Assembly: GCA_001816655.1 (NCBI GenBank)
Contig: MHCP01000015.1
Span: 96,049 to 160,048 of the forward strand
DNA: 64,000 nt
Source: Candidatus Woykebacteria bacterium RBG_13_40_15
GTDB lineage: Bacteria; Patescibacteriota; Microgenomatia; Woykebacterales; RBG-16-39-9b
Reading direction: 5' to 3'
Position 1 is the stretch's first letter. Each line of letters starts with the position of its first letter. The notes beneath the pieces are model-generated. The model was not told the origin of the DNA and searched no databases. It saw nothing but the letters and a program-made list of their open reading frames with translations. A program made the translations under genes and the position numbers. Below, piece after piece: positions 1,314-60,896 of this stretch.

Positions 1314-3266
1314 ATGGGTAAAACAATTGGTATAGATCTTGGAACTACAAATTCGGCTGTTGCTGTGGTTGAAGGCGGTCAGCCAAAAGTAATTCACAGC
1401 GCTGAAGGAGAAAACATTATCCCAAGCGTTGTGGACCCGGTAAAGCACATTGCTGGGAGAGTAGCAAAACGCCAGCAAATTGTAAATCCAAAAGACACAA
1501 TTTTTTCGATCAAAAGGCTGATGGGCCGCCGTTTCAAGGACGAGTCAGTCCAGTATGATATTAGATGGCTTCCATACACGATAAAAGAAGGTAAAGACAG
1601 CGTGGCCGTAGTTGAAGTGCAGGGTAAAGAATATATCCCGCAAGAAATTTCGGCAATGGTCTTGCAAAAAATAAAAGCCGATGCCGAAAGTTACCTCGGT
1701 GAAAAAGTAACTGAAGCAGTAATTACCGTTCCAGCATATTTTGATGATTCACAGCGCCAAGCAACAAAACAAGCCGGTGAAATTGCTGGCCTAGAAGTTA
1801 AAAGAATTATTAACGAGCCGACGGCTGCCGCCCTTGCTTACGGACTAGATAAAGAAAAAGCCCACACTATCGCGGTCTATGATCTTGGTGGCGGGACTTT
1901 TGACATTACGATTTTGGAAATCGGTGAGGGAGTTTTTGAAGTTAAATCAACTGCCGGGGACACACATCTTGGCGGAGACGACTTTGACCAGAAAGTTCTA
2001 AGCTACTTAATTGACGAATTCAAAAAAGAACAGGGAATTGATCTATCCGGTGACAAACAGGCTCTGCAGAGACTGCGCGATGCCGCCGAAAAAGCAAAGG
2101 TCGAGCTTTCCTCTACTGCCGAAGCAGAAATAAATATCCCGTTTATTACCGCCGATTCTTCCGGGCCAAAACACCTGGTTACGAAGTTAACACGCGCGAA
2201 ACTGGAAAGCTTAACAGGTGATCTTGTCGAAAAGAGTTTTGATGCGGTAAAACAGGCGCTTAAAGACGCGAAACTCGAACCTTCAAAAATAGACGAAATC
2301 GTTTTAGTCGGTGGGCAAACCAGAATGCCCGCAGTTGCCGAAAAAGTAAAAAGTTTCTTTGGCAAAGAAGCGCACAAAGGAATAAATCCGGACGAAGTGG
2401 TGGCAGTTGGTGCGGCGATCCAGGGAGCAGTGCTCGCGGGAGAAATGAAGGAGATGGTTTTGCTGGATGTGACTCCCCTTTCCTTAGGAGTTGAAACACT
2501 TGGTGGGGTGATGACCACGTTGATAGCAAGAAACACAACTGTTCCGACAGCAAAAACAGACGTCTTTTCTACTGCGGCGGATAATCAAACCAGTGTTGAA
2601 ATTCACGTGTTGCAAGGTGAGCGGCCAATGGCAGCGGATAATAAGTCACTCGGGCGGTTTATCCTTGAAGGAATTCCGCCCGCGCCAAGAGGTATACCAC
2701 AAGTTGAAGTGACATACGATATTGATGCAAATGGGATTTTGAATGTTACGGCAAAAGACAAAGCAACCGGCAAAGAGCAATCAATAAAAATTACTGGTAG
2801 CACTGGTCTTTCCAAAGACGAAATAGACAAAATGCAAAAAGAAGCAGAAAGCAACGCGGCTGAAGATGCAAAGAGAAAAGAGCTGATAGAAGCGCGAAAT
2901 ATCGCCGACTCTCTCGTGTACACAGCTGAAAAATCAATCAAAGATGCAGGAGATAAATTGCCCGCTGATGTGAAAACAGAAGTTGAGGAAAAAGTAAAAG
3001 CTGCGAAAGAAGCAATTGCCGGCGATGATTTGGAAAAAATCAAAAAAGCAACTGACGAGCTAGGAGCTTCCCTACAAAAAATTGGCTCTTCAATGTACCA
3101 GACCCCTCCGGGCTCCGACAAAACCGAGTCTTCTCCTCAAGACGAAATAAAAGCCGAAGGTGCAACCACTGAGGACACGGAAAAAGAAACCGGAAGCACT
3201 GAGGAGAAAAAAGACGGACCAGTCGAAGGCGAAGTCGTGGACGAAGATAAAGATAAGAAAGAATAA
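1314..3266 (+). CDS. dnaK: Chaperone DnaK (Hsp70)
   Basis: 650 aa with [17 protein letters not shown] and the full Hsp70 ATPase and substrate-binding domains. RBS GGAGG upstream. Confidence 0.97.
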
Positions 3267-3270
3267 AGAT

Positions 3271-3969
3271 ATGAAAAGTTGGTGGGAATTGGGCGAAGGC
3301 GCTGGTTTCAGTGGCAACAAACTATCAACCTATCAAATTGATTGCCCTTTTTGTGAGGAAAGAGACAATTTTGAAGAAGCGGCTCATTTCGAAAAGAAGA
3401 AACCAAACTCATCCAAAGTACTAAATTTTGACACCTTAAAGTGTGGTAACTGCGCAGGCTATGTTATGGTTCTTTGGTCGTCTAGTGACTATGACTTTCA
3501 TTCCGGAATCCACGATTTTCGAGTGTTACCCTGGTCACTTACAATAAATAAAGCCCCTACTCATTGGCCTCAAGCAATACAAAGATATTGGGTGCAAGCA
3601 AATAAATCTTTACAAGTCGAAAACTGGGATGCCGCGGCTGAAATGGCTAGAAGTACATTACAAATTGCTTTAAGAGACCACGGGGCTGTTGGTAAGGATT
3701 TATTTGAGGAAATAAATAATCTTGCAGAGAAAGGAGTGTTGCCACCTCTTATGAAAGAATGGTCTCATGAAGTGAGAGAGCTTGGCAACGACTCAGCCCA
3801 TCCCAGACCAGAGCAAAAAGAAACAAGCCTAGGAGATGCCCGAGATATTGTAGAATTTTTGGACTTTCTTCTCGAATATCTTTACGACTTGCCAAAACGA
3901 ATAGAAGATTATAGAGGAAGAAGGAAAGCCGAAAAAGCAACCACTCAGATCAAAAAGAAAACAAACTAG
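3271..3969 (+). CDS. Zn-ribbon (CPFC..CGNC) plus DUF4145-like C-terminal domain protein
   Basis: Real start is ATG 3271, not the ORF-track start 3160 that overlaps dnaK. Two CxxC pairs N-terminally. C-terminal RELGNDSAH motif resembles the DUF4145 signature. Begins 5 nt after the dnaK stop. Confidence 0.6.
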   Translation: MKSWWELGEGAGFSGNKLSTYQIDCPFCEERDNFEEAAHFEKKKPNSSKVLNFDTLKCGNCAGYVMVLWSSSDYDFHSGIHDFRVLPWSLTINKAPTHWPQAIQRYWVQANKSLQVENWDAAAEMARSTLQIALRDHGAVGKDLFEEINNLAEKGVLPPLMKEWSHEVRELGNDSAHPRPEQKETSLGDARDIVEFLDFLLEYLYDLPKRIEDYRGRRKAEKATTQIKKKTN

Positions 3970-3987
3970 TTGTAACAGTATTCCAAA

Positions 3988-4030
3988 CTCCCAAAAACTT
4001 GAAATTTCTATAAGTCAGATATATAATCGC
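3988..4030 (+). promoter_or_regulatory. Promoter repeat copy A (TTGAAA-17-TATAAT)
   Basis: -35 TTGAAA 3999..4004, 17-nt spacer, -10 TATAAT 4022..4027. First of five copies of CCAAAAACTTGAAATTTCTATAAGTCA...TATAAT. Confidence 0.6.
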
Positions 4031-4128
4031 GAAGATTACATCTAGCCCGTTTCTATGCGGGATTTAATCCCGTCAGTGAATAATGTCGGTACCACTGCAT
4101 TAGTACAGTCCGAAAGGAGAGTCGTCTG

Positions 4129-4539
4129 ATGGCTGACAGGAAAAGATCGACTTCTTGGAGAGCCGATCCAGAGTTCCGGAGAATGGTGGAGGAAAAGAAG
4201 CAAGAGCTGGATTACCTCTTCGGTCTTATCGGTCCGTTCGAGGATTGGGAGGACTGGGATGAGTCTATCCCAGACGAGGACGTGGTCCGCTTAGAGCTGC
4301 ACGTAGGAGACGGCATTGAAAGAGGTCATCTGGAGCTAACCATGGGCGAGCTTCGAAGGGTCAAAGAGCTCGCCGAACTGCTCAAAGTGCTGAAAGAGCA
4401 GAAGATCATGATCGAAGAGCCAGACACGATCGCTAGACTCACCAGCGAGCTAGGATCCGAAAGTGCAAAGAGGGCTCTCGAGGTAGTACTCGGAAGCTTG
4501 ATAATCGAAGGCTGTCCTTGCGACGAACTGTCGGACTAA
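4129..4539 (+). CDS. Hypothetical acidic protein (GC-rich cassette gene 1)
   Basis: 136 aa, GC-rich codon usage unlike the flanks. GGAGAG RBS. No recognisable domain. Ends in CPCDELSD. Confidence 0.5.
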   Translation: MADRKRSTSWRADPEFRRMVEEKKQELDYLFGLIGPFEDWEDWDESIPDEDVVRLELHVGDGIERGHLELTMGELRRVKELAELLKVLKEQKIMIEEPDTIARLTSELGSESAKRALEVVLGSLIIEGCPCDELSD

Positions 4540-4562
4540 TCACGGAAGCGAGGAGGCTTAAA

Positions 4563-4913
4563 ATGCTGACAATAAAAATGACCGGCGACAACGGCCATCT
4601 GCTAACCATAAGCAGAGAAGAAGGCAGAATCCTTATGGAAATGCGATCGCCTGGGGATATGATCCGGGGCTATGAGTTCCGAAAGCATCCCATTAGCCTG
4701 GCTCGGGCGCTCCACTACGTCCTGGCAGTCCCCGAATGTGATGACCTCGCCTTCGTCGAGGAGGATTTCAGAGGCAGGGTTTCCGTCAAGGAGGAGGAGT
4801 ACACCTTGACCTTTGACACCTTGGGCGAGTCAAAAGGCGTTACAGTCAAGGCCCGGCGGGATGACTTTTCCGACGTGGTCGGCCTTTTGGAAAATCTCCC
4901 CAGAGGCTCATGA
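4563..4913 (+). CDS. Hypothetical protein (GC-rich cassette gene 2)
   Basis: GGAGG RBS then ATG 4563 (the ORF track starts earlier at 4518, overlapping gene 1). 116 aa with no recognisable domain. Confidence 0.45.
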   Translation: MLTIKMTGDNGHLLTISREEGRILMEMRSPGDMIRGYEFRKHPISLARALHYVLAVPECDDLAFVEEDFRGRVSVKEEEYTLTFDTLGESKGVTVKARRDDFSDVVGLLENLPRGS

Positions 4914-4989
4914 TCGATCGTCGCCACCAGCGCCTGCCGACAGAGCTCGACTTTAACCGGTCGGGCTCTTCCATCTCTAATAATTTTCC

Positions 4990-5065
4990 AAAAAAAACTT
5001 GAAATTTCTAAAGCGGCTTCTTGTGTGTTGACAGTCGATACACTAAAGGGGTACACTAGCGGTGT
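4990..5065 (+). promoter_or_regulatory. Promoter repeat copy B (truncated) fused to a TTGACA-18-TACACT promoter with TACACT/GTGTA operator-like repeats
   Basis: TTGAAATTTCTA 4999..5010, then TTGACA 5028..5033 and TACACT 5052..5057. TACACT occurs at 5039 and 5052, with inverted GTGTA at 5062. The ATG at 5066 leaves almost no leader. Confidence 0.5.
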
Positions 5066-5329
5066 ATGGTAAAAAGGGTAAATATTTCTTTTCCAGAAAA
5101 AACCTTAAATGATCTGAAAGAGCTTGTACCACCTCGAGAAAGAAGCAAACTGGTGAGTGAGGCCGTCGAAGAAAAGTTAAATGATTTTAAAAGGGCTGTA
5201 GCGTTTGAGAAGCTCGAGAAAGCCCGTGAGAAATTCTCTTCCTTTGAGACTATTAAAAGCAAGGAAGACACTGTTGCTTGGGTAAAAAATATGAGAAAAG
5301 GTTGGAATCGCAGAGAAACCTCGAAGTAA
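5066..5329 (+). CDS. vapB: Ribbon-helix-helix (CopG/VapB-like) antitoxin
   Basis: 87 aa with an N-terminal RHH pattern (RVNISFPEKTLNDLKEL..RERSKLVSEAVEEKL). Immediately upstream of a PIN gene. Confidence 0.7.
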   Translation: MVKRVNISFPEKTLNDLKELVPPRERSKLVSEAVEEKLNDFKRAVAFEKLEKAREKFSSFETIKSKEDTVAWVKNMRKGWNRRETSK

Positions 5330-5334
5330 TCAGA

Positions 5335-5709
5335 ATGAAATTATTGGTTGATACAAACGTTTTTATTGCTTACGGTAAAAAAAGAGATGGCGGTTTGGTT
5401 GATAGAATAAAATCTGAGAACCACGATCTTTACACCTCGGTGGTGTCGCTAGCAGAACTTCGGAGCGGAATCCACAAACGAGACCTAAATTTTTATCAAG
5501 CGATTAAAGAAACCTTTAGGCCGCTGCCTGTCGATTTGGAGATTGCGGATTTGGCTGGCGAATTTAGATACGAATTTTTGAGAAAGGGTTTGGATATAGA
5601 TTTGGCCGACCATATCATAGCTGCGACTGCTTTATTAAATAATTTGGCGCTGGTTACTTTCAACAAAAAAGATTTTCCCCACAAAAATCTCGAGCTGTAT
5701 CCAATTTGA
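5335..5709 (+). CDS. vapC: PIN-domain toxin (VapC-like)
   Basis: Start at ATG 5335 (MKLLVDTNVFI). Conserved D in the LVDTN motif. About 125 aa, 5 nt after the RHH stop. Confidence 0.75.
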   Translation: MKLLVDTNVFIAYGKKRDGGLVDRIKSENHDLYTSVVSLAELRSGIHKRDLNFYQAIKETFRPLPVDLEIADLAGEFRYEFLRKGLDIDLADHIIAATALLNNLALVTFNKKDFPHKNLELYPI

Positions 5710-5722
5710 TAAAATTAGCAAA

Positions 5723-5842
5723 ATGGAAATAAAGGAAACACAGGCGAAAAGTATTTTAACCCCTTCCAAATTCACAACTGCTTATGCAGGAAAGAGAACA
5801 CTTCAATCTATTGATAAATTAAAGTGTTTCCCAAAAACTTGA
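5723..5842 (+). pseudogene. Diverged duplicate of the 5' end of the radical-SAM SplB-like gene (remnant)
   Basis: Encodes MEIKETQAKSILTPSK..., versus MEIKEIAAKSVLTPSK at 7693. About 80% nt identity over the first ~48 nt, then divergence. The stop falls inside promoter repeat C. Confidence 0.55.
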
Positions 5843-5870
5843 AATTTCTATAAGTCAAAGATATAATTCC
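5829..5870 (+). promoter_or_regulatory. Promoter repeat copy C (TTGAAA-17-TATAAT)
   Basis: -35 at 5839..5844 and -10 at 5862..5867. Near-identical to copies A and E. Confidence 0.6.
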
Positions 5871-5964
5871 ACCAACAACAGAAAAGACTCAACCAAGCCA
5901 GCCACTTACCTAAGAAGGGATTTCAAGTGTAGTTTCGGAGGAATACGAAAGGAGCACGGCGGAA

Positions 5965-6702
5965 ATGAGTGAGGGACGAGTTGCTTTGGTCACTGGTTCA
6001 TCTCGTGGAATCGGCCAGGCCATCGCAGTCAAGCTGGCTTCTCAAGGAGCAAGAGTGGCCATCAACTGTTTCCGAGACTTAGATGGTGCAGCTGAAACGC
6101 TGCGCTTAATCGAATCATCTGGAGGCCAGGCCGTCATAATCAGAGCGGATCTCGGTAGTGCCGAAGGAGTTGCCGACCTGCTTGGAAGAACTCAGCAGGC
6201 TCTGGGAGATATCGATATCCTCGTCCACAATGCCGGGTATTTCTATGCCACTCTCCTGCCTCGCTTCAAGAGGGAAGAGTGGGATAAACTGATACAGATT
6301 AACCTGACAGCGGCTTTCGAGCTCGCTAGCGGTGTATATCTGCAAATGGCGAGGAGGAGATGGGGCCGCATTGTCTTCATTTCTTCAGTCATTGCCCTGG
6401 CTGGCAACACCGGTCAGAGTGGTTACGGAGCTGCAAAGGCAGGGCTGATTGGGCTTGCCAAGTCAGTTGCTGTTGAATATGGTGCTAGGGAAATCACCTG
6501 TAACGTCGTTGCGCCAGGATACATCAGAACCAGGATGACCGAGGATGTTCACGAAGAGACCATCGGCGAAGCTTTAGAACGGCAAGCAATCAAACGGCCT
6601 GGAACACCAGAAGACGTAGCTGCCTTGGTCGGTTTTCTAGCTAGCGACGAGGCTAGTTGGATTACTAGGCAGGTATTCCAGGTCGACGGGGGCCTCCTAT
6701 GA
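5965..6702 (+). CDS. Short-chain dehydrogenase/reductase, 3-oxoacyl-ACP reductase (FabG)-like
   Basis: TGSSRGIGQAIA glycine-rich motif and a conserved YGAAK catalytic motif. GC-rich, with a GGAGG RBS. Confidence 0.8.
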   Translation: MSEGRVALVTGSSRGIGQAIAVKLASQGARVAINCFRDLDGAAETLRLIESSGGQAVIIRADLGSAEGVADLLGRTQQALGDIDILVHNAGYFYATLLPRFKREEWDKLIQINLTAAFELASGVYLQMARRRWGRIVFISSVIALAGNTGQSGYGAAKAGLIGLAKSVAVEYGAREITCNVVAPGYIRTRMTEDVHEETIGEALERQAIKRPGTPEDVAALVGFLASDEASWITRQVFQVDGGLL

Positions 6703-6737
6703 TGCGGGGTTCCCCAAACAGGCCGTAACTTGAGCGA

Positions 6738-7175
6738 GTGCTTGGCGCACTTTTGGAAGGAGGAACGGATTTGGCTGGAATAAACGTCGCCCAATTAACG
6801 AAGGGCTACAAATTTCCCCCGATTACCTTTGCCGTCTCAGCCGAGCAGGCAGAGGCATACCGGAAGGTGACCGAGGGTGTCGAGGGATCAAGCTATATCC
6901 CTCCGCTCGGGGCGATCGCATTCGCCCTTCAGTCCCTGCTCGAGCAGGTGGAGTTGCCGGAAGGCTCGGTTCATGGCGGAGAGGGTTACGAGTGCCATAG
7001 CCCAATTGCGGTTGGTAGCGAGCTAATTGCGAATGGCTCTGTCGTTGACCGAGCTGACCGCGGAAGCTTCGCCCTCCTCGAAGTGGAGATCCAACTGACA
7101 GTGGCAGGTTCTTTGGAACCGGCCTTGGTAAGTGGAGCAACACTCGTGACGCCGCTGCTCAAAGGAGGCTACTGA
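6738..7175 (+). CDS. Hotdog-fold protein, MaoC N-terminal-like (HadA-like non-catalytic partner)
   Basis: 145 aa, GC-rich, directly followed and overlapped by a MaoC dehydratase gene. This is the HadA-HadB-like pair arrangement (inference). Confidence 0.45.
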   Translation: MLGALLEGGTDLAGINVAQLTKGYKFPPITFAVSAEQAEAYRKVTEGVEGSSYIPPLGAIAFALQSLLEQVELPEGSVHGGEGYECHSPIAVGSELIANGSVVDRADRGSFALLEVEIQLTVAGSLEPALVSGATLVTPLLKGGY

Positions 7176-7576
7176 TGACTGTTCTAACTGCTCCGGCTGA
7201 GCTTCGTGCCACCCGCCAGTTCGATCAGGAAACCATCAACCGCTACGCCGATCTGGTCGGGGATCACAACCCCATTCATGTCGACGAGGAGTTTGCGAGG
7301 AGCACTCCTTTCGGCGGGACAATTGCCCATGGCATGCTCGTCTTGTCGCTAGCCTCTAACATGCTGGAGAAGCAATTCGGCGACCGGTGGCGAGCGTCGG
7401 GCAAGTTGAAGGTTCGGTTCAAGGCGCCGACCAAAAGCGGAGCTACCGTTACTGCTCAAGCCAGTTTGAAGGAGGGGGAGCAGCCGGCCGACAACAAGAT
7501 CGCGACCTACCGAGTCGAATGCCGGAACGAGCAGAGAGAGGTAGTCATAGTGGGCACTGCGCAGGTTACTCTGTAA
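7175..7576 (+). CDS. MaoC-like (R)-specific dehydratase, hotdog fold (HadB/PhaJ-like)
   Basis: DLVGDHNPIHVD..GGTIAHGM matches the MaoC dehydratase active-site motif. ATGA start overlaps the upstream stop. Confidence 0.75.
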   Translation: MTVLTAPAELRATRQFDQETINRYADLVGDHNPIHVDEEFARSTPFGGTIAHGMLVLSLASNMLEKQFGDRWRASGKLKVRFKAPTKSGATVTAQASLKEGEQPADNKIATYRVECRNEQREVVIVGTAQVTL

Positions 7577-7595
7577 CCCAGTGCCCAAGTTCGGT

Positions 7596-7642
7596 CCCCG
7601 GGGCCTTGCTGTTCCAGCAAAGGTCCCGGGATAGCCTCTTTT
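7596..7642 (+). terminator. Possible intrinsic terminator after the FabG/hotdog cassette
   Basis: Imperfect GC-rich hairpin (CCTTGCTG-ttc-CAGCAAAGG, flanked by CCCCGGGG and TCCCGGGA), then CTCTTTTA. Confidence 0.3.
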
Positions 7643-7692
7643 ATCAGACATTAAGTTCCCAATAAATTCCTATCTTCTGCTAAAATGACTCT

Positions 7693-8541
7693 GTGGAAAT
7701 AAAAGAAATAGCAGCGAAAAGTGTTTTAACTCCCTCCAAACTCCCCGGAGTTGATTTTGTGGTTAATCCTTACATTAGTTGCGGTTTTGCGTGCACTTAT
7801 TGCTACGCAACTTTTATGGCAAGATATGTCGGCAAGACAGCGAACGATTGGGGAAAATTTGTTTTTGTAAAAGAAAACGCTCCCGAAGTTTTAAAAGAGG
7901 AACTAGCAAAACTAAAAAATAAAGGAGCTGGAAAAAGTATCCTTTTTAGTTCTGTCACCGATCCCTATCAAGGTGCAGAATCAAAATATAAAATTACCCA
8001 AAAGTGTCTGGAAGTTTTAGCAGATTTTGGTTTCAGTGGACAAGTTGGAATTTTAACAAAATCCAATTTAGTTTTAAGAGATGCGGATACATTTAAAAAA
8101 CTAAAAGATGTTGAGGTGGGACTGACTATTATAACAACTGATGATAAAATTTCTCGCTATTTTGAAAAATATGCACCAGCTGCAAGTTTAAGACTAGAAG
8201 CCTTGAAGAAACTAAATGAAGAGGGTATAAAAACTTACGTGTTTGTCGGACCTCTTTTGCCTCATTTTGTTGCCGAAGAAGAAAAGCTGGAAAAGCTTTT
8301 TAAAGAGATTTCCGAAACAGGAAACAAGGGGCTTTTTGTGGAACACATAAATTTGAGTAAATATATTTTGGAAAGACTGGAGAGGGAAACAAAAGATTTG
8401 GATAAAAGTACAACAGCCAAGTTTTATGAGTCAAAACAAAAACCTTACAGAGACAGACTGGATGAAATCGTTGTAAAGTTAGTTAAAAAATACAATTTGA
8501 AACTTCGATCCGGCTCCACAATCTACCATCGCGGGTCTTAA
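7693..8541 (+). CDS. Radical SAM protein, SplB-like (DNA-repair photolyase family, COG1533-like)
   Basis: CGFACTYC (CxxxCxxC) near the N-terminus. GTG start. AT-rich, host-like composition. 282 aa. Confidence 0.8.
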   Translation: MEIKEIAAKSVLTPSKLPGVDFVVNPYISCGFACTYCYATFMARYVGKTANDWGKFVFVKENAPEVLKEELAKLKNKGAGKSILFSSVTDPYQGAESKYKITQKCLEVLADFGFSGQVGILTKSNLVLRDADTFKKLKDVEVGLTIITTDDKISRYFEKYAPAASLRLEALKKLNEEGIKTYVFVGPLLPHFVAEEEKLEKLFKEISETGNKGLFVEHINLSKYILERLERETKDLDKSTTAKFYESKQKPYRDRLDEIVVKLVKKYNLKLRSGSTIYHRGS

Positions 8542-8547
8542 ATTTTC

Positions 8548-8585
8548 CCCACTAAACTTGAAGATTTATCTATTTGTAGTATAAT
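8548..8585 (+). promoter_or_regulatory. Promoter repeat copy D (diverged, TTGAAG-16-TATAAT)
   Basis: CCCCACTAAACTTGAAGATTTATCTATTTGTAGTATAAT. -35 at 8558..8563 and -10 at 8580..8585. Confidence 0.5.
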
Positions 8586-8641
8586 CTGCGCACAATCGAA
8601 TATATTGGAGAGTGCTTCGAAAAACCTTCGAGAAAGGAGGG

Positions 8642-9388
8642 ATGGTTGCCATGTTGCGCTTTCTTCAGCAGCTAACAAGGCGACTCCGAGGAAGAAGTCT
8701 AACCAAGGCCAAGCTTTGGTTGGCGCTTTTGTCCTTGGTGTTCTTGCCTCTTTTTGTGAGTGCCGAGCCTGCCTGTGAGGCGCAGAAGATCCGCGAGCGG
8801 TATGGAGTGGAGATTGTGCTCGTGGGTCAGAGCTGGAGCGAGACCAGCCTGGGCGCGGTTGACGACGCTTTGAGTCGACTTCCACCGCATGTCGTCAGCC
8901 AATTGGGTAGCCGGTTCAACGGCAGTCTGTACATACTGTGCAACACTGAGTCGCGTACCCTATCCGGTACCAGCGTCTTCTCGCACGGCGCGAACTTCTA
9001 CTCCAATAGTGACGGCCGCAACGAGCTCGTCCTCTACCCCGACCAGAGTACACCCACTGTCCTGCACGAACTAGCCCATGCCTATCAACTCCGCTTAGTT
9101 CCAGCGGGAAAGTACGCTCTGGTCTTTCGAGACGAGAAGATGAAGGACTTCATGCAAGCCACCGGTTGGCGTCTACTTAGCTCCGATGCGCAGGTGGAAA
9201 CTGCTCTTGATCAGACACAGCTAAGCTTCGCCTATGATGGTCCGACGGTCTGGCATTTCATGTCCAACAACGACCCGCTGGAGGACTACGCGAACTCGTT
9301 CGCCCTGTTCTTCTACGACCTGGAGCGTCTTCGCCAACTCTCGCCAGTGCGCTACGACTGGATCCTAGAGCACGTGGCCAGCGAGTGA
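8642..9388 (+). CDS. Secreted putative Zn-metallopeptidase-like protein (HELAH motif)
   Basis: Start is ATG 8642, after an AAAGGAGGG RBS. N-terminal hydrophobic signal-like segment. HEXXH motif (VLHELAHAYQ). GC-rich. Confidence 0.55.
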   Translation: MVAMLRFLQQLTRRLRGRSLTKAKLWLALLSLVFLPLFVSAEPACEAQKIRERYGVEIVLVGQSWSETSLGAVDDALSRLPPHVVSQLGSRFNGSLYILCNTESRTLSGTSVFSHGANFYSNSDGRNELVLYPDQSTPTVLHELAHAYQLRLVPAGKYALVFRDEKMKDFMQATGWRLLSSDAQVETALDQTQLSFAYDGPTVWHFMSNNDPLEDYANSFALFFYDLERLRQLSPVRYDWILEHVASE

Positions 9389-9427
9389 AGTTGATGACGA
9401 CGAAGTGCCGAGAATCAGTGAACAGTC

Positions 9428-9457
9428 AAAGGCCCTTGCAGCCAGCGAGGGCCCTTT
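9428..9457 (+). terminator. Possible terminator hairpin after the HEXXH gene
   Basis: AAAGGCCC-ttgcagccagcga-GGGCCCTTT, followed by a short T-run. Confidence 0.35.
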
Positions 9458-9465
9458 CTAATTCC

Positions 9466-9502
9466 CCAAAACTTGAAATTTCTATAAGTCATACATTATA
9501 AT
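9466..9502 (+). promoter_or_regulatory. Promoter repeat copy E (TTGAAA-18-TATAAT)
   Basis: -35 at 9473..9478 and -10 at 9497..9502. Its downstream leader shares GAAAGGAGGGATGG with copy D's leader. Confidence 0.6.
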
Positions 9503-9569
9503 TCCACCACAATTGAATATCGCGGACGGTGTCCTCCGAGAAATCGAAGGGCTTTCAAAGAAAGGAGGG

Positions 9570-10562
9570 ATGGCCGAGATGGCTACCCGACTGCCTCAAA
9601 AAGGGATGGCACCTGGTGCTACCCGAGGCAAACCTGTTACCCTTGAGCAGGTTCTCGATCTGTTGGAACGATTGAAGGGGAAGAAGTTCGGGTTAAGGGA
9701 GTTTCAGAGACTCATTGAGTCGTTCGATGTCCTCGCTCTTATTGGGAGCGGAGAACTGACGAGGGAGACGTTGCGCCTTATCCTTACCCCTAATGAGGGC
9801 TGGGCCGCTGGCGAACTTCAAAGGATGCTGAGTTCCTACTTCCCTTTCTGGAATGAGGAAATTGAGTCCTCACAAGGCTATCCCGATGGTTACCGATTCA
9901 AGTCTGCAGCCGGGAAGCTGCTAGCCTTGCAGAGTCTTCACCTTCTCGGTACCGATGACTATGGCAGCCACGTAAAAGAGCTAGCCACCCACTACGCTCG
10001 CAACATGCCTAAGGGAGCCGAGGAGCTTTTAGTTTGCCCGAAACCCTCAAGGGCGAAGGAGTGGGGGTTAACTTACTCCTACAACCTACCCTTAAGTAGT
10101 GCGTTGATAATCCTAGACAGGGCCATAAAGCCAAGGTTCCAAAACTGGTGGAAAGATGAGCAGCTTGGCGACACCGAGATGCTAAGACTCACCGACAAAA
10201 CTGCAGCAGCGCTCGACAAGCTGGAGGCGGAAACACCAGGAGACTACCTAGTCATTCCTGTCCAGATGGGGATGAGGCACCGTGGCAGAAGCGCTCGTAG
10301 AGCTGTAGCCTGCTTCGCCGAAAACGAGTTCGGTCTCGGTCCTCTCGAAGTCGCCTACTACCTTGCTAGCTGTCCCGAGCGGTTCGTCATGTGGTACGAT
10401 CTAGGGATTATCTGCGCAGGTGCCGAATGCAAAGATAGTCCTAAGGGGGAGTTCGACGGTTGCCCAGCCTTCAACGAGCACCAGGATAGGATCAATCTTC
10501 GCTACCGCCGAGCTGACGAGTACAGTGATTTGTATGGGGTGGCGACCGGCTTCCTGTCGTAG
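9570..10562 (+). CDS. Hypothetical protein (GC-rich orphan, 330 aa)
   Basis: Start is ATG 9570 after an AAAGGAGGG RBS. No recognisable domain. Cys-rich C-terminus. Confidence 0.5.
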   Translation: MAEMATRLPQKGMAPGATRGKPVTLEQVLDLLERLKGKKFGLREFQRLIESFDVLALIGSGELTRETLRLILTPNEGWAAGELQRMLSSYFPFWNEEIESSQGYPDGYRFKSAAGKLLALQSLHLLGTDDYGSHVKELATHYARNMPKGAEELLVCPKPSRAKEWGLTYSYNLPLSSALIILDRAIKPRFQNWWKDEQLGDTEMLRLTDKTAAALDKLEAETPGDYLVIPVQMGMRHRGRSARRAVACFAENEFGLGPLEVAYYLASCPERFVMWYDLGIICAGAECKDSPKGEFDGCPAFNEHQDRINLRYRRADEYSDLYGVATGFLS

Positions 10563-10594
10563 CTCATCCACCTTCTAACCACAGTTGTTAACAA

Positions 10595-10632
10595 GGCGCC
10601 CGACTCTAACCCAGTCGGGCGCTACCATTTCT
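10595..10632 (+). terminator. Intrinsic terminator at the right end of the island
   Basis: Perfect 9-10 bp stem GGCGCCCGAC / GTCGGGCGC with a 9-nt loop, then TACCATTTCT. Confidence 0.5.
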
Positions 10633-10681
10633 AATACTATTAGCAAATTTTGGTTGAATCTGCTAAAATTCATCACTAGTT

Positions 10682-10834
10682 ATGGCTGAAAAACGTGATT
10701 ACTACCAAATCTTAGGCGTAGGAAAAACAGCCTCCGCCGATGAAATAGCATCCTTTGTATGCGAAAAAGACATTCGTATTTTTCGCGTACTCCCGGATGC
10801 TGCGATTAAGCATAGGCTACGCCTATTAGCTTAA
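10682..10834 (+). pseudogene. Diverged duplicate of the dnaJ 5' end (J-domain start), remnant ORF
   Basis: Encodes MAEKRDYYQILGVGKTASADEI, then unrelated sequence. Compare dnaJ MAKRDYYEVLGVSKTASADDI 190 nt downstream. Confidence 0.5.
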
Positions 10835-10869
10835 TCTTTAAAAAAGCTTATTATTTTGATTAACTATTT

Positions 10870-11964
10870 ATGGCAAAAAGAGATTACTACGAAGTGCTAG
10901 GGGTTTCGAAAACCGCTAGTGCTGACGACATAAAGAAAGCATACAGAGGTATGGCACGGAAGCATCATCCGGATGTGGATAAAACAGCTGGTGCAGAAGG
11001 ACGGTTTAAAGAAATAAACGAAGCCTACCAAGTTTTGTCTGACGCCCAAAAGCGGGAGGCTTATGACCGCTTTGGCCACGCTGCTTTTCAAGCGGGTGGC
11101 GCTCAAGGACAGCCGGGTGGCGGTTTTCAATATCAGTACGGACCTGGAGTTTCTTTTGATTTTGATTTCGGGGGTTTCCGAGACCCATTTGATATTTTTG
11201 AAGAATTTTTTGGATCGAGATCTCCTTTTGGTAGACAAAGTAGGCGAGGCCCGGCACGTGGGCAAGATCTTCATTTTGAAATTACCCTACCTTTTGAAAA
11301 CGCTGCTTTTGGGGTGACACGAAATATAGAAATTCCCCGACGCGAAACTTGTTCGGAATGCAGCGGTAGCGGCGCAGCAAAAGGAAGTAAGCCAGTTACT
11401 TGCCCAGCCTGCAGAGGTTCGGGACGAGTGAGCAACCAGACACAGTCTATTTTCGGCGCTTTTATGACGATGTCTCCTTGCCCAACCTGTAGGGGTGAGG
11501 GGACAGTAATCCTCAAGAAATGCCCAAAATGCAAAGGTAGTGGAATAGTGCGCGGAATCAAAGAAACCCAAATTAAAATCCCGGCTGGTGTCGATGACGG
11601 CGACACTATCCGTTTCCAGAGGCTTGGTGAAGCCGGCGAAAAAGGCGGTGAGTACGGAGACCTTTATTTAACTATCAGAGTTCTCCCTCACAAATTTTTG
11701 AAAAGAGCCGGTTTCGATGTTTATTACGAACAACCAATTTCTTTTACTCAAGCAGCACTTGGTGATGTAATAGAAGTACCGACGCTGGACGGAAAAGTAA
11801 ATTTGAAAATCCCAGAAGGAATTCAGACTGGAACGGAACTGCGGTTAAAAGAAAGAGGAATTGTGCATGGACAGTCCCGCGGCGATCAATACGTTAGAGT
11901 AAAAGTGGTAACCCCTAAACACCTTTCCGCTCGGCAGAAGGAAGCTTTAGAAGAGTTGAAATAG
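10870..11964 (+). CDS. dnaJ: Chaperone DnaJ
   Basis: J-domain with HPD. G/F-rich region. Four CxxCxGxG zinc-finger repeats. C-terminal domains. Confidence 0.95.
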   Translation: MAKRDYYEVLGVSKTASADDIKKAYRGMARKHHPDVDKTAGAEGRFKEINEAYQVLSDAQKREAYDRFGHAAFQAGGAQGQPGGGFQYQYGPGVSFDFDFGGFRDPFDIFEEFFGSRSPFGRQSRRGPARGQDLHFEITLPFENAAFGVTRNIEIPRRETCSECSGSGAAKGSKPVTCPACRGSGRVSNQTQSIFGAFMTMSPCPTCRGEGTVILKKCPKCKGSGIVRGIKETQIKIPAGVDDGDTIRFQRLGEAGEKGGEYGDLYLTIRVLPHKFLKRAGFDVYYEQPISFTQAALGDVIEVPTLDGKVNLKIPEGIQTGTELRLKERGIVHGQSRGDQYVRVKVVTPKHLSARQKEALEELK

Positions 11965-12510
11965 GATTCTTCGAATCCTGCGCTATTTCTAGCTAAGGAT
12001 TTTCCATACTTTTGAAATTTTTGAGCTTCTCAATTCCTCAAGTATTCCCAAATCCTGCGCTAGACATCTTATGCTTAGCTAAAAGTGAACAAATAGAACA
12101 GGGGCGAGCTCTCGTCGTGATTCACCGCGGACATCACAACTAAAGAGACTCGCCCCCTGACCAACTGGTCGTACTCCTCGGCCGAGATGCCTTATAAGCA
12201 CGACTAGTTGATCTCTTGTGCGGCGCCGATCATGGCCACGCGAAGACCTCGCTAGCTATTAGGAGGAGGCTAGCCCCAAACCAGCGCCGCCCTCTATTCC
12301 GATTTCTTCCGGGGTGGGGGTGGTGCCAGCAAAAGGAGGTTCTTAGCTGACCGTTCCCCTTTTTCTACCGGGTGAGGTCTTCCATGCGGTTGTAAGCTGG
12401 AAGGAGGTAAGGCCTAAGAGCTCGTAGCCGCGGGAAGTGCCAGCACCACCCCATACCCCAATCGGGATTGCTCGCTTTTATTCCAAAACAGACCAAAAGG
12501 CCTGGGTCTC
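11965..12510. other. GC-rich ORF-free structured region (candidate ncRNA of unknown identity, or decayed foreign DNA)
   Basis: About 550 bp, much more GC-rich than the flanks. No ORF of 60 aa or more. Nested inverted repeats such as GGGGCGAG..CTCGCCCC, and direct repeats of AATCCTGCGCTA. Confidence 0.3.
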
Positions 12511-12513
12511 TCC

Positions 12514-12589
12514 GGTTTCTCGGGAGGGACTCGAACCCCAACCTAAGTGGCTAACAGCCACTGGCTCTTCCAATTGAGCTACCCGAGAA
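12514..12589 (-). tRNA. tRNA-Asn (anticodon GTT)
   Basis: Minus-strand cloverleaf TCTCGGG-TA-GCTC..GAGC-C-AGTGG-CTGTTAG-CCACT..TTCGAGT..CCCGAGA. The T-stem and acceptor junction is one nt off canonical. Confidence 0.6.
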
Positions 12590-59907: not shown

Positions 59908-60495
59908 CTAGTCTCGCCAGATGATGAACCCGTTTCCCCTAAAAGGGAAATTGTAGCCCTTACCGTTTTCTGCAACCCAGATATCCACCTTGTTTCCAGT
60001 TACAGCTCCTCCGGTGTCTTCGCAGGTGTAGACTTGATCCGAGTTGTCACCAACGATGGTGAACTCTCGCCCCAACCATTCAATAGGGCAAGCAGCCACA
60101 CCAGGGCGAACAGGGGTGCCGGACTTAGTGTTACCACAATAACCGCCACCATCATCACCTAGCACTTCTACTGTCTTACGGCAGTAGTAGAAGGCGATCC
60201 AGACTTCGGTGCCTAGATTTGCCTTGGAGGTTGGGGGGTTTGGTTGTGGTTGTTCCTCAGCCACAGGGGGTGAACTTGCGGCCCGCATCTCTGGTTGCGG
60301 TATACCCGGGGTTGGTGTTGGTGTTACCATCGTGGGGGTTGGAGTGACTAGAGACGTTTCTTGAGAGAGCTTGACTTGGGTCTGTTCTCGAGGGTTTTGC
60401 CCAGCAGATCTTTGATTGTGTTGGTGCATGTTGGTACGAATCCCAGGTATCAGTGCCACTAGTAGAACTAGGATTAGCACCAGCCAGACGCGCAA
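59908..60495 (-). CDS. Secreted 3D-domain protein (MltA/YuiC-like cell-wall-binding/lytic domain), Pro/Thr-rich linker
   Basis: N-terminal signal-like helix. PTPT linker. C-terminal YTCEDTGGAVTGNKVDIWV 3D-domain motif. GC-rich. Confidence 0.6.
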   Translation of the reverse strand: MRVWLVLILVLLVALIPGIRTNMHQHNQRSAGQNPREQTQVKLSQETSLVTPTPTMVTPTPTPGIPQPEMRAASSPPVAEEQPQPNPPTSKANLGTEVWIAFYYCRKTVEVLGDDGGGYCGNTKSGTPVRPGVAACPIEWLGREFTIVGDNSDQVYTCEDTGGAVTGNKVDIWVAENGKGYNFPFRGNGFIIWRD

Positions 60496-60821: not shown

Positions 60822-60896
60822 CGGGGTGTAGCTCAGTGGTAGAGCACAGGGCTGGGGGTCCTGGTGCCGGAGGTTCGATTCCTCTCACCCCGACCA
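60822..60896 (+). tRNA. tRNA-Pro (anticodon GGG)
   Basis: Canonical cloverleaf CGGGGTG-TA-GCTC..GAGC-A-CAGGG-CTGGGGG-TCCTG..GGAGG-TTCGATT-CCTCT-CACCCCG-A-CCA. Confidence 0.9.

Follow-up and report, generated by a model that had tools for sequence, protein, structure and literature searches.

A mosaic island of GC-rich gene cassettes with a recurring promoter-like module between dnaK and dnaJ of Candidatus Woykebacteria RBG_13_40_15

What lies between dnaK and dnaJ in Candidatus Woykebacteria RBG_13_40_15, and how was it put together? We addressed this question in a 64-kb stretch of DNA, hereafter the window, from the metagenome-assembled genome of this member of the Patescibacteria or candidate phyla radiation (CPR). 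Coordinates are those of the window, and all features of the locus lie on the plus strand. The end of dnaK at 3266 and the start of the functional dnaJ at 10870 are 7.6 kb apart, a distance already given in an earlier note on this DNA and confirmed here by Pfam. This spacer is a real feature of the genome, a lineage-specific accessory island. It consists of four GC-rich transcription units interleaved with AT-rich debris that includes one and a half copies of a radical-SAM gene. Most of the GC-rich genes stand behind a recurring promoter-like module, P, and two units end in a common terminator-like module, T. We lean, with modest confidence, to the view that these units are moron-like, self-expressing cassettes which accreted at a hot spot via recombination across P and T. 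A moron is a gene that is inserted between the genes of an element, brings along a promoter and a factor-independent terminator of its own, and deviates from its neighbours in nucleotide composition.

The 24-nt core of P, AAAACTTGAAATTTCTATAAGTCA, was found exactly at 3994, 5834 and 9468 and nowhere else in the window, while zero copies are expected by chance. Together with their flanks the copies P(A) (3981..4027), P(C) (5827..5875) and P(E) (9462..9509) share 39-48 nt at 92-97% identity. They read TTGAAA-17/18-TATAAT (17 nt of spacer in P(A), 18 in P(E)) and match 11 of the 12 consensus positions of a sigma70 promoter. Judged by consensus, P would rank as a top-tier sigma70 promoter and is probably an active, strong one. 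The core holds an 8-bp palindrome, GAAATTTC. The earlier note had counted five copies of a near-perfect promoter. This description fits A, C and E, which are near-identical, but not the other two: P(D) (8545..8585) has diverged to TTGAAG-16-TATAAT, and P(B) (4984..5013) is a truncated left half of 25-30 nt with an 18-nt exact stretch, AAAAACTTGAAATTTCTA, which lacks the -10 box and was not called as a promoter. Four cassettes carry a sigma70-like site at 10-11 of 12 positions. The leader block claimed for copies D and E was found as AGAAAGGAGGGATGG, identical in 15 of 15 positions, and the homology of the two leaders extends further out. Every copy sits directly behind a gene end or a hairpin, as had been noted before. 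An exact 23-mer of P had no match in GTDB species genomes or JGI metagenomes; a degenerate 21-mer scan of the JGI metagenomes led to 20 loci, of which contig L107 is the sole true relative.

At the other end of the cassettes a hairpin was present in each case. T(A) (4943..4982) is a hairpin followed by TTCCATCTCTAATA, and T(E) (10596..10637) forms the right edge of the island. Both are homologs of the terminator module of L107, with 22/24 identity each, so that the same ~40-bp module ends two cassettes; around T(E) the match continues, with L107 949-1100 being 87% identical to window 10593-10747. T(D) (9428..9461) has a 9-bp stem with 7 GC pairs followed by CTTTCTAAT and abuts P(E). Cassette C ends in a hairpin region (7590..7650, hairpin at 7593-7605) that coincides with a GC-to-AT transition. 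In general the cassette ends are GC-rich stems of 9-10 bp with loops of 3-8 nt followed by TTTCTAAT, without GTTRRRY/RYYYAAC cores. These hairpins presumably terminate transcription. No RNA family of Rfam was matched in the island. All island units are co-oriented and possess a leader, a Shine-Dalgarno sequence and a terminator.

The composition of the island is sharply mosaic when computed, at variance with a uniform GC content, which the earlier note had raised as an objection to its own view. The cargo open reading frames (ORFs) have a GC content of 0.53-0.58 and a GC content at third codon positions (GC3) of 0.50-0.69, compared to a GC3 of 0.33 ± 0.04 for host ORFs (n = 47) and a mean GC of 41% for the window. 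This GC-rich set comprises A1, A2, the FabG gene, both hotdog genes, the HEXXH protein and the 330-aa protein, and these genes are compositionally foreign. The switches in GC lie no more than a few nucleotides away from the -10 box and from the terminator. Host-like GC3 values of 0.28-0.40 were obtained for a DUF4145 gene, vapBC and the radical-SAM gene. About one third of the island is AT-rich mobile-element debris, i.e. a defence-like gene, vapBC and the radical-SAM gene. Accordingly, the picture of a promoter-cassette array, in which each copy of P heads its own cargo, needs amendment. Most GC-rich genes do lie behind P; yet the debris does not belong to this scheme, vapBC behind P(B) is AT-rich (GC3 0.38-0.40) and has a promoter of its own, and the cassettes share a 3' module, T, as well. 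The DUF4145 and radical-SAM genes had not been counted among the cargo, and T and two 5' gene stubs had been overlooked, while the gene content that had been listed (vapBC, a FabG/hotdog trio, a HEXXH protein and a 330-aa gene without Pfam match) was corroborated.

Comparison with relatives showed the region to be an insertion. In L001, the closest species representative with a DnaJ of 70% identity, the order is hrcA-grpE-orf80-dnaK, a spacer of ~700 bp, dnaJ and nusA-infB; the spacer contains one GC-richer ORF on the opposite strand that reads as receiver-domain-like. L107 is 81-84% identical to the window at the nucleotide level across dnaK, dnaJ, nusA and infB. Its spacer of ~620 bp consists of one P, a GC-rich ORF of 130 aa, a hairpin terminator followed by TTCCATTTCTAATA, and the dnaJ promoter. 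The P copies of the window are 86-90% identical to that of L107: P(A) is its positional ortholog (86% identity to L107 466-514), and P(C) reaches 90%. The 130-aa ORF is a homolog of A2 with 25% identity (E 5e-8); the flanks are much better conserved than the cargo between the two genomes. P and T of L107 have diverged about as much as the flanking housekeeping genes. Because L107 has a single P-cargo-T unit at the site, P and T appear to be resident boundaries of an expression site with exchanged cargo, and such a single unit is apparently the simplest state of the site.

The joints of the island are ragged. A 5' stub of the radical-SAM gene, comprising its promoter and the first ~17 codons (5711..5775), lies before P(C); it is 83% identical to 7694-7740 and 81% to L084 9984-10051, and its position is confirmed in the independent contig L088. 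The tail behind this stub could be the 3' end of the gene, as would result from an internal deletion, but the alignment, although suggestive, is not above shuffles. At the right end, the native dnaJ promoter (called at 10640-10669) is followed by a 66-nt 5' stub of dnaJ (together 10640..10747, ORF to 10834). From the stub to the functional dnaJ extends a hairpin-rich spacer of 122 nt (10748..10869) with the hairpins GCGAAAAA...TTTTTCGC and TTAAGCATAGGC...GCCTATTAGCTTAA, for which blastn gave no match in L107. The stub is identical to the dnaJ start of L107 in 65 of 66 positions, while the functional dnaJ is ~81% identical. Thus the right island end looks like an illegitimate join inside dnaJ, imported from an L107-like lineage. 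Taken together the radical-SAM stub, the dnaJ stub and the half copy of P argue for homologous plus illegitimate recombination rather than a precise site-specific insertion.

Upstream of dnaJ a CIRCE-like motif, TTAGCA-N15-TGCTAA, overlaps an extended -10 box, TGCTAAAAT. It is conserved in the window (10640-10669), in L001 (~9958-9986) and in L107 (~990-1018); compared to the full CIRCE, TTAGCACTC-N9-GAGTGCTAA, only the outer hexamers are present. This suggests a separate control of dnaJ by HrcA. The earlier note had proposed that HrcA-controlled transcription could read through from dnaK into the island. Because dnaJ has its own CIRCE-like promoter and the cassettes end in hairpin terminators, such read-through is not needed for cassette expression.

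P-like sequences and comparable arrays were also seen elsewhere. Contigs L084 and L085 carry an integrative element with the order large serine recombinase, Xre-type regulator, radical-SAM gene, VirD4/TraG-like ATPase and Replic_Relax protein, the radical-SAM gene lying beside two tRNA-like sequences (read by eye). The radical-SAM gene of the window is 89% identical to that of the element in amino acids and 90% in nucleotides. Directly 3' of its stop codon both contigs have a P-like sequence (23/28 to P), which is the place occupied by P(D) in the window; P(D) is the positional homolog of the copy at L084 10853. The common sequence is limited to this gene and the following P-like sequence, and recombinase, coupling ATPase and relaxase of L084/L085 had zero homologs in the window by tblastn. 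More distant radical-SAM homologs (68%) are located in other accessory regions without P. In addition, L084 16340-20530 holds at least 5 GC-rich (50-55%) small-ORF cassettes, each with a promoter, a leader, a strong Shine-Dalgarno sequence and a terminator. Their junction repeats differ from those of the window: a hairpin CCCTAAG...CTTAGG, a terminator ACGACTCGGAAACGGGTCGT, a promoter CCCTATAGnnTTGACTT and a 32-nt repeat TTAAATATAyGCACAAAAGATTCTAACATCGT at three cassette ends. In L116 the AT-rich spacer before a gene of the 330-aa family has a -10 box, leader and Shine-Dalgarno sequence homologous to copies D and E (the D leader being homologous to those of E and L116), whereas the -35 side resembles the L084 array promoters. 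The earlier note had called P a native module which captures foreign genes. 'Native to the locus' is defensible with P being resident in L107; yet its P-like counterpart on the L084/L085 element and the D/E-type promoter and leader that accompany cargo in L116 imply that P is not simply a gene-capturing host module.

In the reading that we favor, the island would have grown by accretion at a conserved hot spot just upstream of the CIRCE-type promoter of dnaJ. The building block would be P of ~50 bp, a leader of 60-100 nt with a strong Shine-Dalgarno sequence, 1-3 GC-rich genes and a hairpin terminator. Cargo genes would have been acquired from GC-richer genomes, the incoming DNA probably arriving by natural transformation or on integrative elements. 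In the genome of the window P may have been multiplied to three near-identical, one diverged and one truncated copy, and T duplicated. Gain or exchange of units would have come about through homologous recombination across the short P and T modules plus illegitimate joins, to which the 5' stubs of genes and the truncated P would be due. Between species P and T would persist at the locus while the cargo is replaced or added. Several points weigh against this account. P and T are just 40-50 bp long, near the lower limit of RecA-type recombination, and the perfectly identical spacer of the three P copies as well as the distance of 0-3 nt between T and P at two junctions would likewise be in line with a site-specific mechanism. 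The dedicated recombinase which the latter calls for is not encoded in cis in the window, but one acting in trans, or more copies of P, may exist elsewhere in the genome. L107 is the only close relative of the locus that came to light. The stricter terminator rule of our scan accepted T(D) alone among the cassette ends. Finally, the uniformly GC-rich nature of the cargo across several independent AT-rich CPR genomes is described by this account but not explained.

Two trivial origins of the pattern were considered. In a metagenome-assembled genome, AT-rich CPR sequence could have been stitched to GC-rich foreign sequence at a short shared repeat; the coincidence of composition switches with a repeat, and the lack of the exact repeat in two large collections, would be in line with this. 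We regard such an artefact as extremely improbable. Contigs L086 and L087 from other assemblies reproduce window 7210-8691 at 99.9-100%, including the GC-to-AT switch, the radical-SAM gene, P(D) and the AT-to-GC switch, and a third contig, L088, reproduces 5706-6588 at 97% with the radical-SAM stub, P(C) and FabG. Because these independent ENA assemblies, two of them labelled k141, cross three composition junctions (5.8, 7.6 and 8.6 kb), the island is not a chimera, the possibility of which the earlier note had conceded. Co-oriented units with leader, Shine-Dalgarno sequence and terminator are not what stitching would predict, and the same architecture occurs in the unrelated samples L107, L081, L084/L085 and L116. 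Nor is P likely to be a generic strong promoter, as the earlier note had conceded it might be, with copies alike by convergence on the consensus. Its -35 and -10 boxes are close to consensus, and the window has other strong promoters of the same class: seven sites match at least 11 of the 12 sigma70 positions, three of which are P copies and four of which stand ahead of rpsL (two sites), fusA and tRNA-Asn. However, the identity between P copies takes in the spacer as well as the 10 nt that precede the -35 box, a sequence which is absent from these four other promoters of 11-12/12, and the 56 kb of housekeeping DNA contain no additional copy. With the core confined to the island and the spacer identity to the P copies, convergence is very hard to credit.

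More serious rivals concern the mobility of the units. They could be moved as promoter-carrying cassettes in an integron-like, site-specific manner, with P (its GAAATTTC core) and/or the TTTCTAAT end of T as recombination sites and a recombinase encoded elsewhere, e.g. an L084/L085-type serine recombinase, Xer or an IS (insertion sequence) transposase. Over 24-29 nt three P copies do not differ, not even in the spacer, which is dispensable for sigma70; T lies 0-3 nt from P at two junctions; P(B) stops immediately behind the heptamer ATTTCTA, with which the T modules end as well; and a P-like sequence resides on an element with a serine recombinase. L084 offers a second array with repeated junctions, among them the 32-nt repeat at three cassette ends, and the inverted repeats of an IS family contain CCTGAAATTTCT as a subterminal repeat. 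Yet integrase, transposase and attC-like site are absent from the island and the rest of the window, as the earlier note had stated (Pfam scans of the island and of ambiguous ORFs; the remainder was read as housekeeping), and the hairpins are terminator-type stems of 9-10 bp. The boundaries are ragged with half copies, gene stubs and a variable 3' extent of P, one palindrome arm is broken in L107, and the IS likeness is at chance level when compared with about 8 other unrelated families of the same scan. A dif/Xer reading was ruled out on sequence grounds. We therefore consider an integron-like mechanism unlikely. Somewhat less unlikely, though still tentative, is that the island is the decayed remnant of one or two mobile elements, i.e. 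an L084-type integrative and conjugative or mobilizable element or a prophage, whose backbone was lost. What remains would be an accessory or 'early' region with many small operons, each under a copy of the promoter of the element, and a repressor of the element that binds the palindrome may have co-regulated them. The radical-SAM gene and the downstream P-like sequence are common to L084 and L085, a second, seemingly internally deleted copy of the gene precedes P(C), small GC-rich ORFs headed by promoters form a comparable array beside the transfer genes of L084, and a defence-type gene and vapBC are typical element cargo. On the other hand, L107 has P-cargo-T at the same site without element genes, and the divergence of its P and T, similar to that of the flanking genes, points to a resident site. 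There are no att repeats flanking the 7.6 kb and no homologs of a recombinase, coupling protein or relaxase in the window, and the alignment of the stub tail with the radical-SAM 3' end lacks statistical significance.

The other matches to P were set aside. L104 and L105 match inside an ORF of an archaeal-looking contig, as judged from reading its ORFs; L089, L093, L095-L098, L100, L102, L103, L106 and L108 are apparent chance matches; and the ~24-nt likeness of the IS family (L090-L092, L094, L099, L101) to P is no better than chance matches of the same scan. A gapped pattern gave one match in IMG/VR, which belongs to a giant-virus bin and was taken as chance. An outward promoter derived from an IS or a miniature inverted-repeat transposable element was rejected as well, because P has no inverted partner, flanking duplication or transposase. 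The IS family itself (L090, L091, L092, L094, L099, L101) encodes a transposase of 427-431 aa and has two CCTGAAATTTCT motifs in both inverted repeats; its right tip is an outward-facing TTGACAG, with duplications of ~13 bp just upstream of a TTGACA of the host.

How do the cassettes relate to known systems? Like morons of phages and prophages, they are predicted units with a sigma70-type promoter, leader, Shine-Dalgarno sequence and hairpin terminator that differ in composition from their neighbours. In contrast to morons they lie in a chromosomal housekeeping operon, flanked by dnaK and dnaJ and not by prophage genes; several units share a promoter module and two a terminator, they form a tandem array, and L107 has a single unit. 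Integron arrays resemble the island in their co-oriented, unrelated accessory genes, the recurring short element, interspersed toxin-antitoxin genes and the lack of mobility genes inside cassettes. However, intI, attI and attC (imperfect inverted repeats of 57-141 bp with R''/R' cores) are absent from the window, the recurring element is 5' and promoter-like, so that each cassette would be expressed by itself rather than from one Pc, and the boundaries are ragged. Common to the serine-recombinase elements L084/L085 and the window are the radical-SAM gene (90% identity) and a P-like sequence behind it, and L084 has promoter-headed GC-rich cassettes as well; the window differs by the lack of recombinase, coupling protein, relaxase and att repeats, and the junctions of the L084 array are of another type. 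Early regions of phages and leading regions of plasmids contain arrays of near-identical early promoters before small genes. They share with the island the many short operons, the recurrence of a single strong promoter and a cargo whose function is mostly unknown, whereas the window has no phage or plasmid backbone and its cargo includes metabolic enzymes and a secreted-type peptidase.

Genomic islands and transfers, mostly between Patescibacteria, are reported to be common in this group, and competence, conjugation and transduction have all been proposed as routes for DNA, competence being one of them for the islands (PMC12455944). Integration hot spots and flexible islands, including those of Patescibacteria, are similar to the locus in the variable accessory content between the same core genes, in defence and toxin-antitoxin genes, and in acquisition apparently mostly from other CPR (PMC12455944). 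They are unlike it in that the P and T repeats give the window a cassette grammar; a term search of the main text of PMC12455944 did not return 'promoter'.

The genomes of CPR bacteria are tiny, and these organisms are believed to rely strongly on the exchange of genes, while the expression of foreign genes in them is poorly understood. The locus displays a grammar in which foreign genes are placed between recurring strong-promoter and terminator modules at a site conserved between species, and other CPR contigs as well as an integrative element carry similar promoter-headed GC-rich cassette arrays. Should this hold more widely, it would account for the immediate use of GC-rich foreign genes by AT-rich, streamlined genomes and would provide a simple sequence signature for accessory genes in uncultured lineages. 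If the mechanism were site-specific, it would constitute a new class of cassette platform. We found no description of this promoter-cassette architecture in the literature. A bolder proposal, to which we give little credence, is that P and T are the boundary sites of an undescribed promoter-carrying cassette system of the CPR, an 'integron without an integrase in cis'. Such a system would shuttle GC-rich cargo of distant donors between genomes as P-to-T units, which a recombinase acting in trans or short-homology recombination would insert or excise at the conserved modules, and the captured genes would be expressed at once in the AT-rich host.

The island starts with the DUF4145 gene (3271..3969; Pfam 1.4e-17), an AT-rich (GC3 0.34), defence-type gene absent from L107. 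It matches phrog_1305 (3e-32) and the PADLOC model of PD-T7-4 (E 1.1e-11, profile positions 10-192 of 211). Cassette A (4129..4913) encodes A1 (4129-4539) and A2 (4563-4913) with GC3 values of 0.61 and 0.66, for which Pfam, PHROG, PADLOC and NCBIfam gave zero matches; exact look-ups of A2 and of DnaJ were empty as well. The vapBC module (5028..5709) has its promoter, TTGACA-18-TACACT, at 5028-5057, followed by vapB (5066-5329) and vapC (5335-5709), which are 5 nt apart. VapC matches PIN (4.5e-15) and VapB weakly RHH_5 (0.0049, below the cut-off); the pair at 5066-5709 is predicted to be a type II VapBC toxin-antitoxin. Cassette C (5965..7576; GC3 0.50-0.69) carries a FabG-type short-chain dehydrogenase/reductase (5965-6702), a hotdog protein (6738-7175) and a MaoC dehydratase (7175-7576), all by Pfam. 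The NCBIfam matches of the two hotdog genes to HadA/HadB-like proteins were below the cut-off. A search with FabG revealed no close donor: the best non-self relatives are ~55% identical, and the few named sources include Anaerolineae, Acidobacteria and Dehalococcoidia. The AT-rich radical-SAM gene (7693..8541; GC3 0.28; Pfam Radical_SAM) is SPL-like and is the gene common to the L084/L085 element. PHROG matches in the island were confined to this and the DUF4145 gene, with no phage structural or replication genes.

Cassette D (8651..9388, alternative start 8642) encodes a secreted-type, zincin-like HEXXH metallopeptidase with a signal-peptide-like N-terminus, as judged from its sequence. H139, E140, H143 and E211 are invariant in the family, which is rare with 65 clusters among 1.84e9 proteins. 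Its profile weakly matches Zmp1/Pro-Pro endopeptidase (E 0.004) and M90/M12 peptidases.

Cassette E (9570..10562) encodes the 330-aa protein, a C-type-lectin-fold candidate whose family is targeted elsewhere by a diversity-generating retroelement (DGR). It has no Pfam match, and for its family Foldseek against PDB and PDB sequence searches were both empty. Among its 17 homologs the two with a named source are both from CPR, one being the Woykebacteria protein of the window itself and the other from Parcubacteria. In L081 a 54%-identical homolog is a DGR target with a variable repeat (VR) at 4687-4818, a template repeat (TR) at 5210-5341 and a reverse-transcriptase gene (RVT_1) at 5718-6776. 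The 132-nt repeat has 22 mismatches, 17 of which fall on adenines of the template. The target gene has a GC content of 52-58% vs 30-38% for the reverse-transcriptase gene. Thus the 330-aa protein may have the C-type-lectin fold typical of DGR-diversified proteins. A DGR in the window itself was ruled out, as it contains neither a TR-like copy nor a reverse-transcriptase gene. The family forms GC-rich islands in the AT-rich contigs L081 and L116, while in L114 and L115 a 49%-identical homolog lies in DNA of uniformly 52-63% GC. In L116 (1-400 and 1280-1501) genes of the family stand in tandem, each followed by a run of CTTGR repeats and then by a hairpin, GAAATTTCGCCCGCGAATTT; this hairpin contains the GAAATTTC core, as does P.

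Outside the island the window holds core functions only: hrcA-grpE-dnaK, dnaJ, nusA, infB, pnp, ftsK, rpoBC, ribosomal-protein operons, secY and rpoA. The left flank, dnaK (1314..3266), was assigned by Pfam HSP70 (E 1e-252) and has 75-84% nucleotide identity to L001 and L107; the right flank, dnaJ (10870..11964), has the Pfam domains DnaJ, DnaJ_C and CXXCXGXG and 81% nucleotide identity to L107. Between grpE and dnaK lies an ORF of 80 aa without Pfam match (1057-1299), and L001 has an ORF of the same length at the same place (7025-7267). An isolated GC-rich gene (53%) on the minus strand at 59908-60495, between rpsI and tRNA-Pro (60822-60896), has no copy of P upstream. By eye its product looks membrane-anchored with a Pro/Thr-rich linker, and PHROG gave weak matches at the C-terminus. 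The region after rpsI is an accessory-gene site in the more distant relatives L111-L113 as well.

Finally, a GC-rich (55-59%) noncoding stretch at 12080-12513 adjoins tRNA-Asn (12514-12589, minus strand). Rfam returned no match for it even at E<=1. Over 12060-12225 the conservation in L107 is ~81%, with indels in the middle. The minus strand folds well beyond shuffles (-196 kcal/mol, z = -6.9), which makes the stretch a candidate novel structured RNA, and an 11/12 promoter at 12633-12605 on the minus strand could co-transcribe it with tRNA-Asn.

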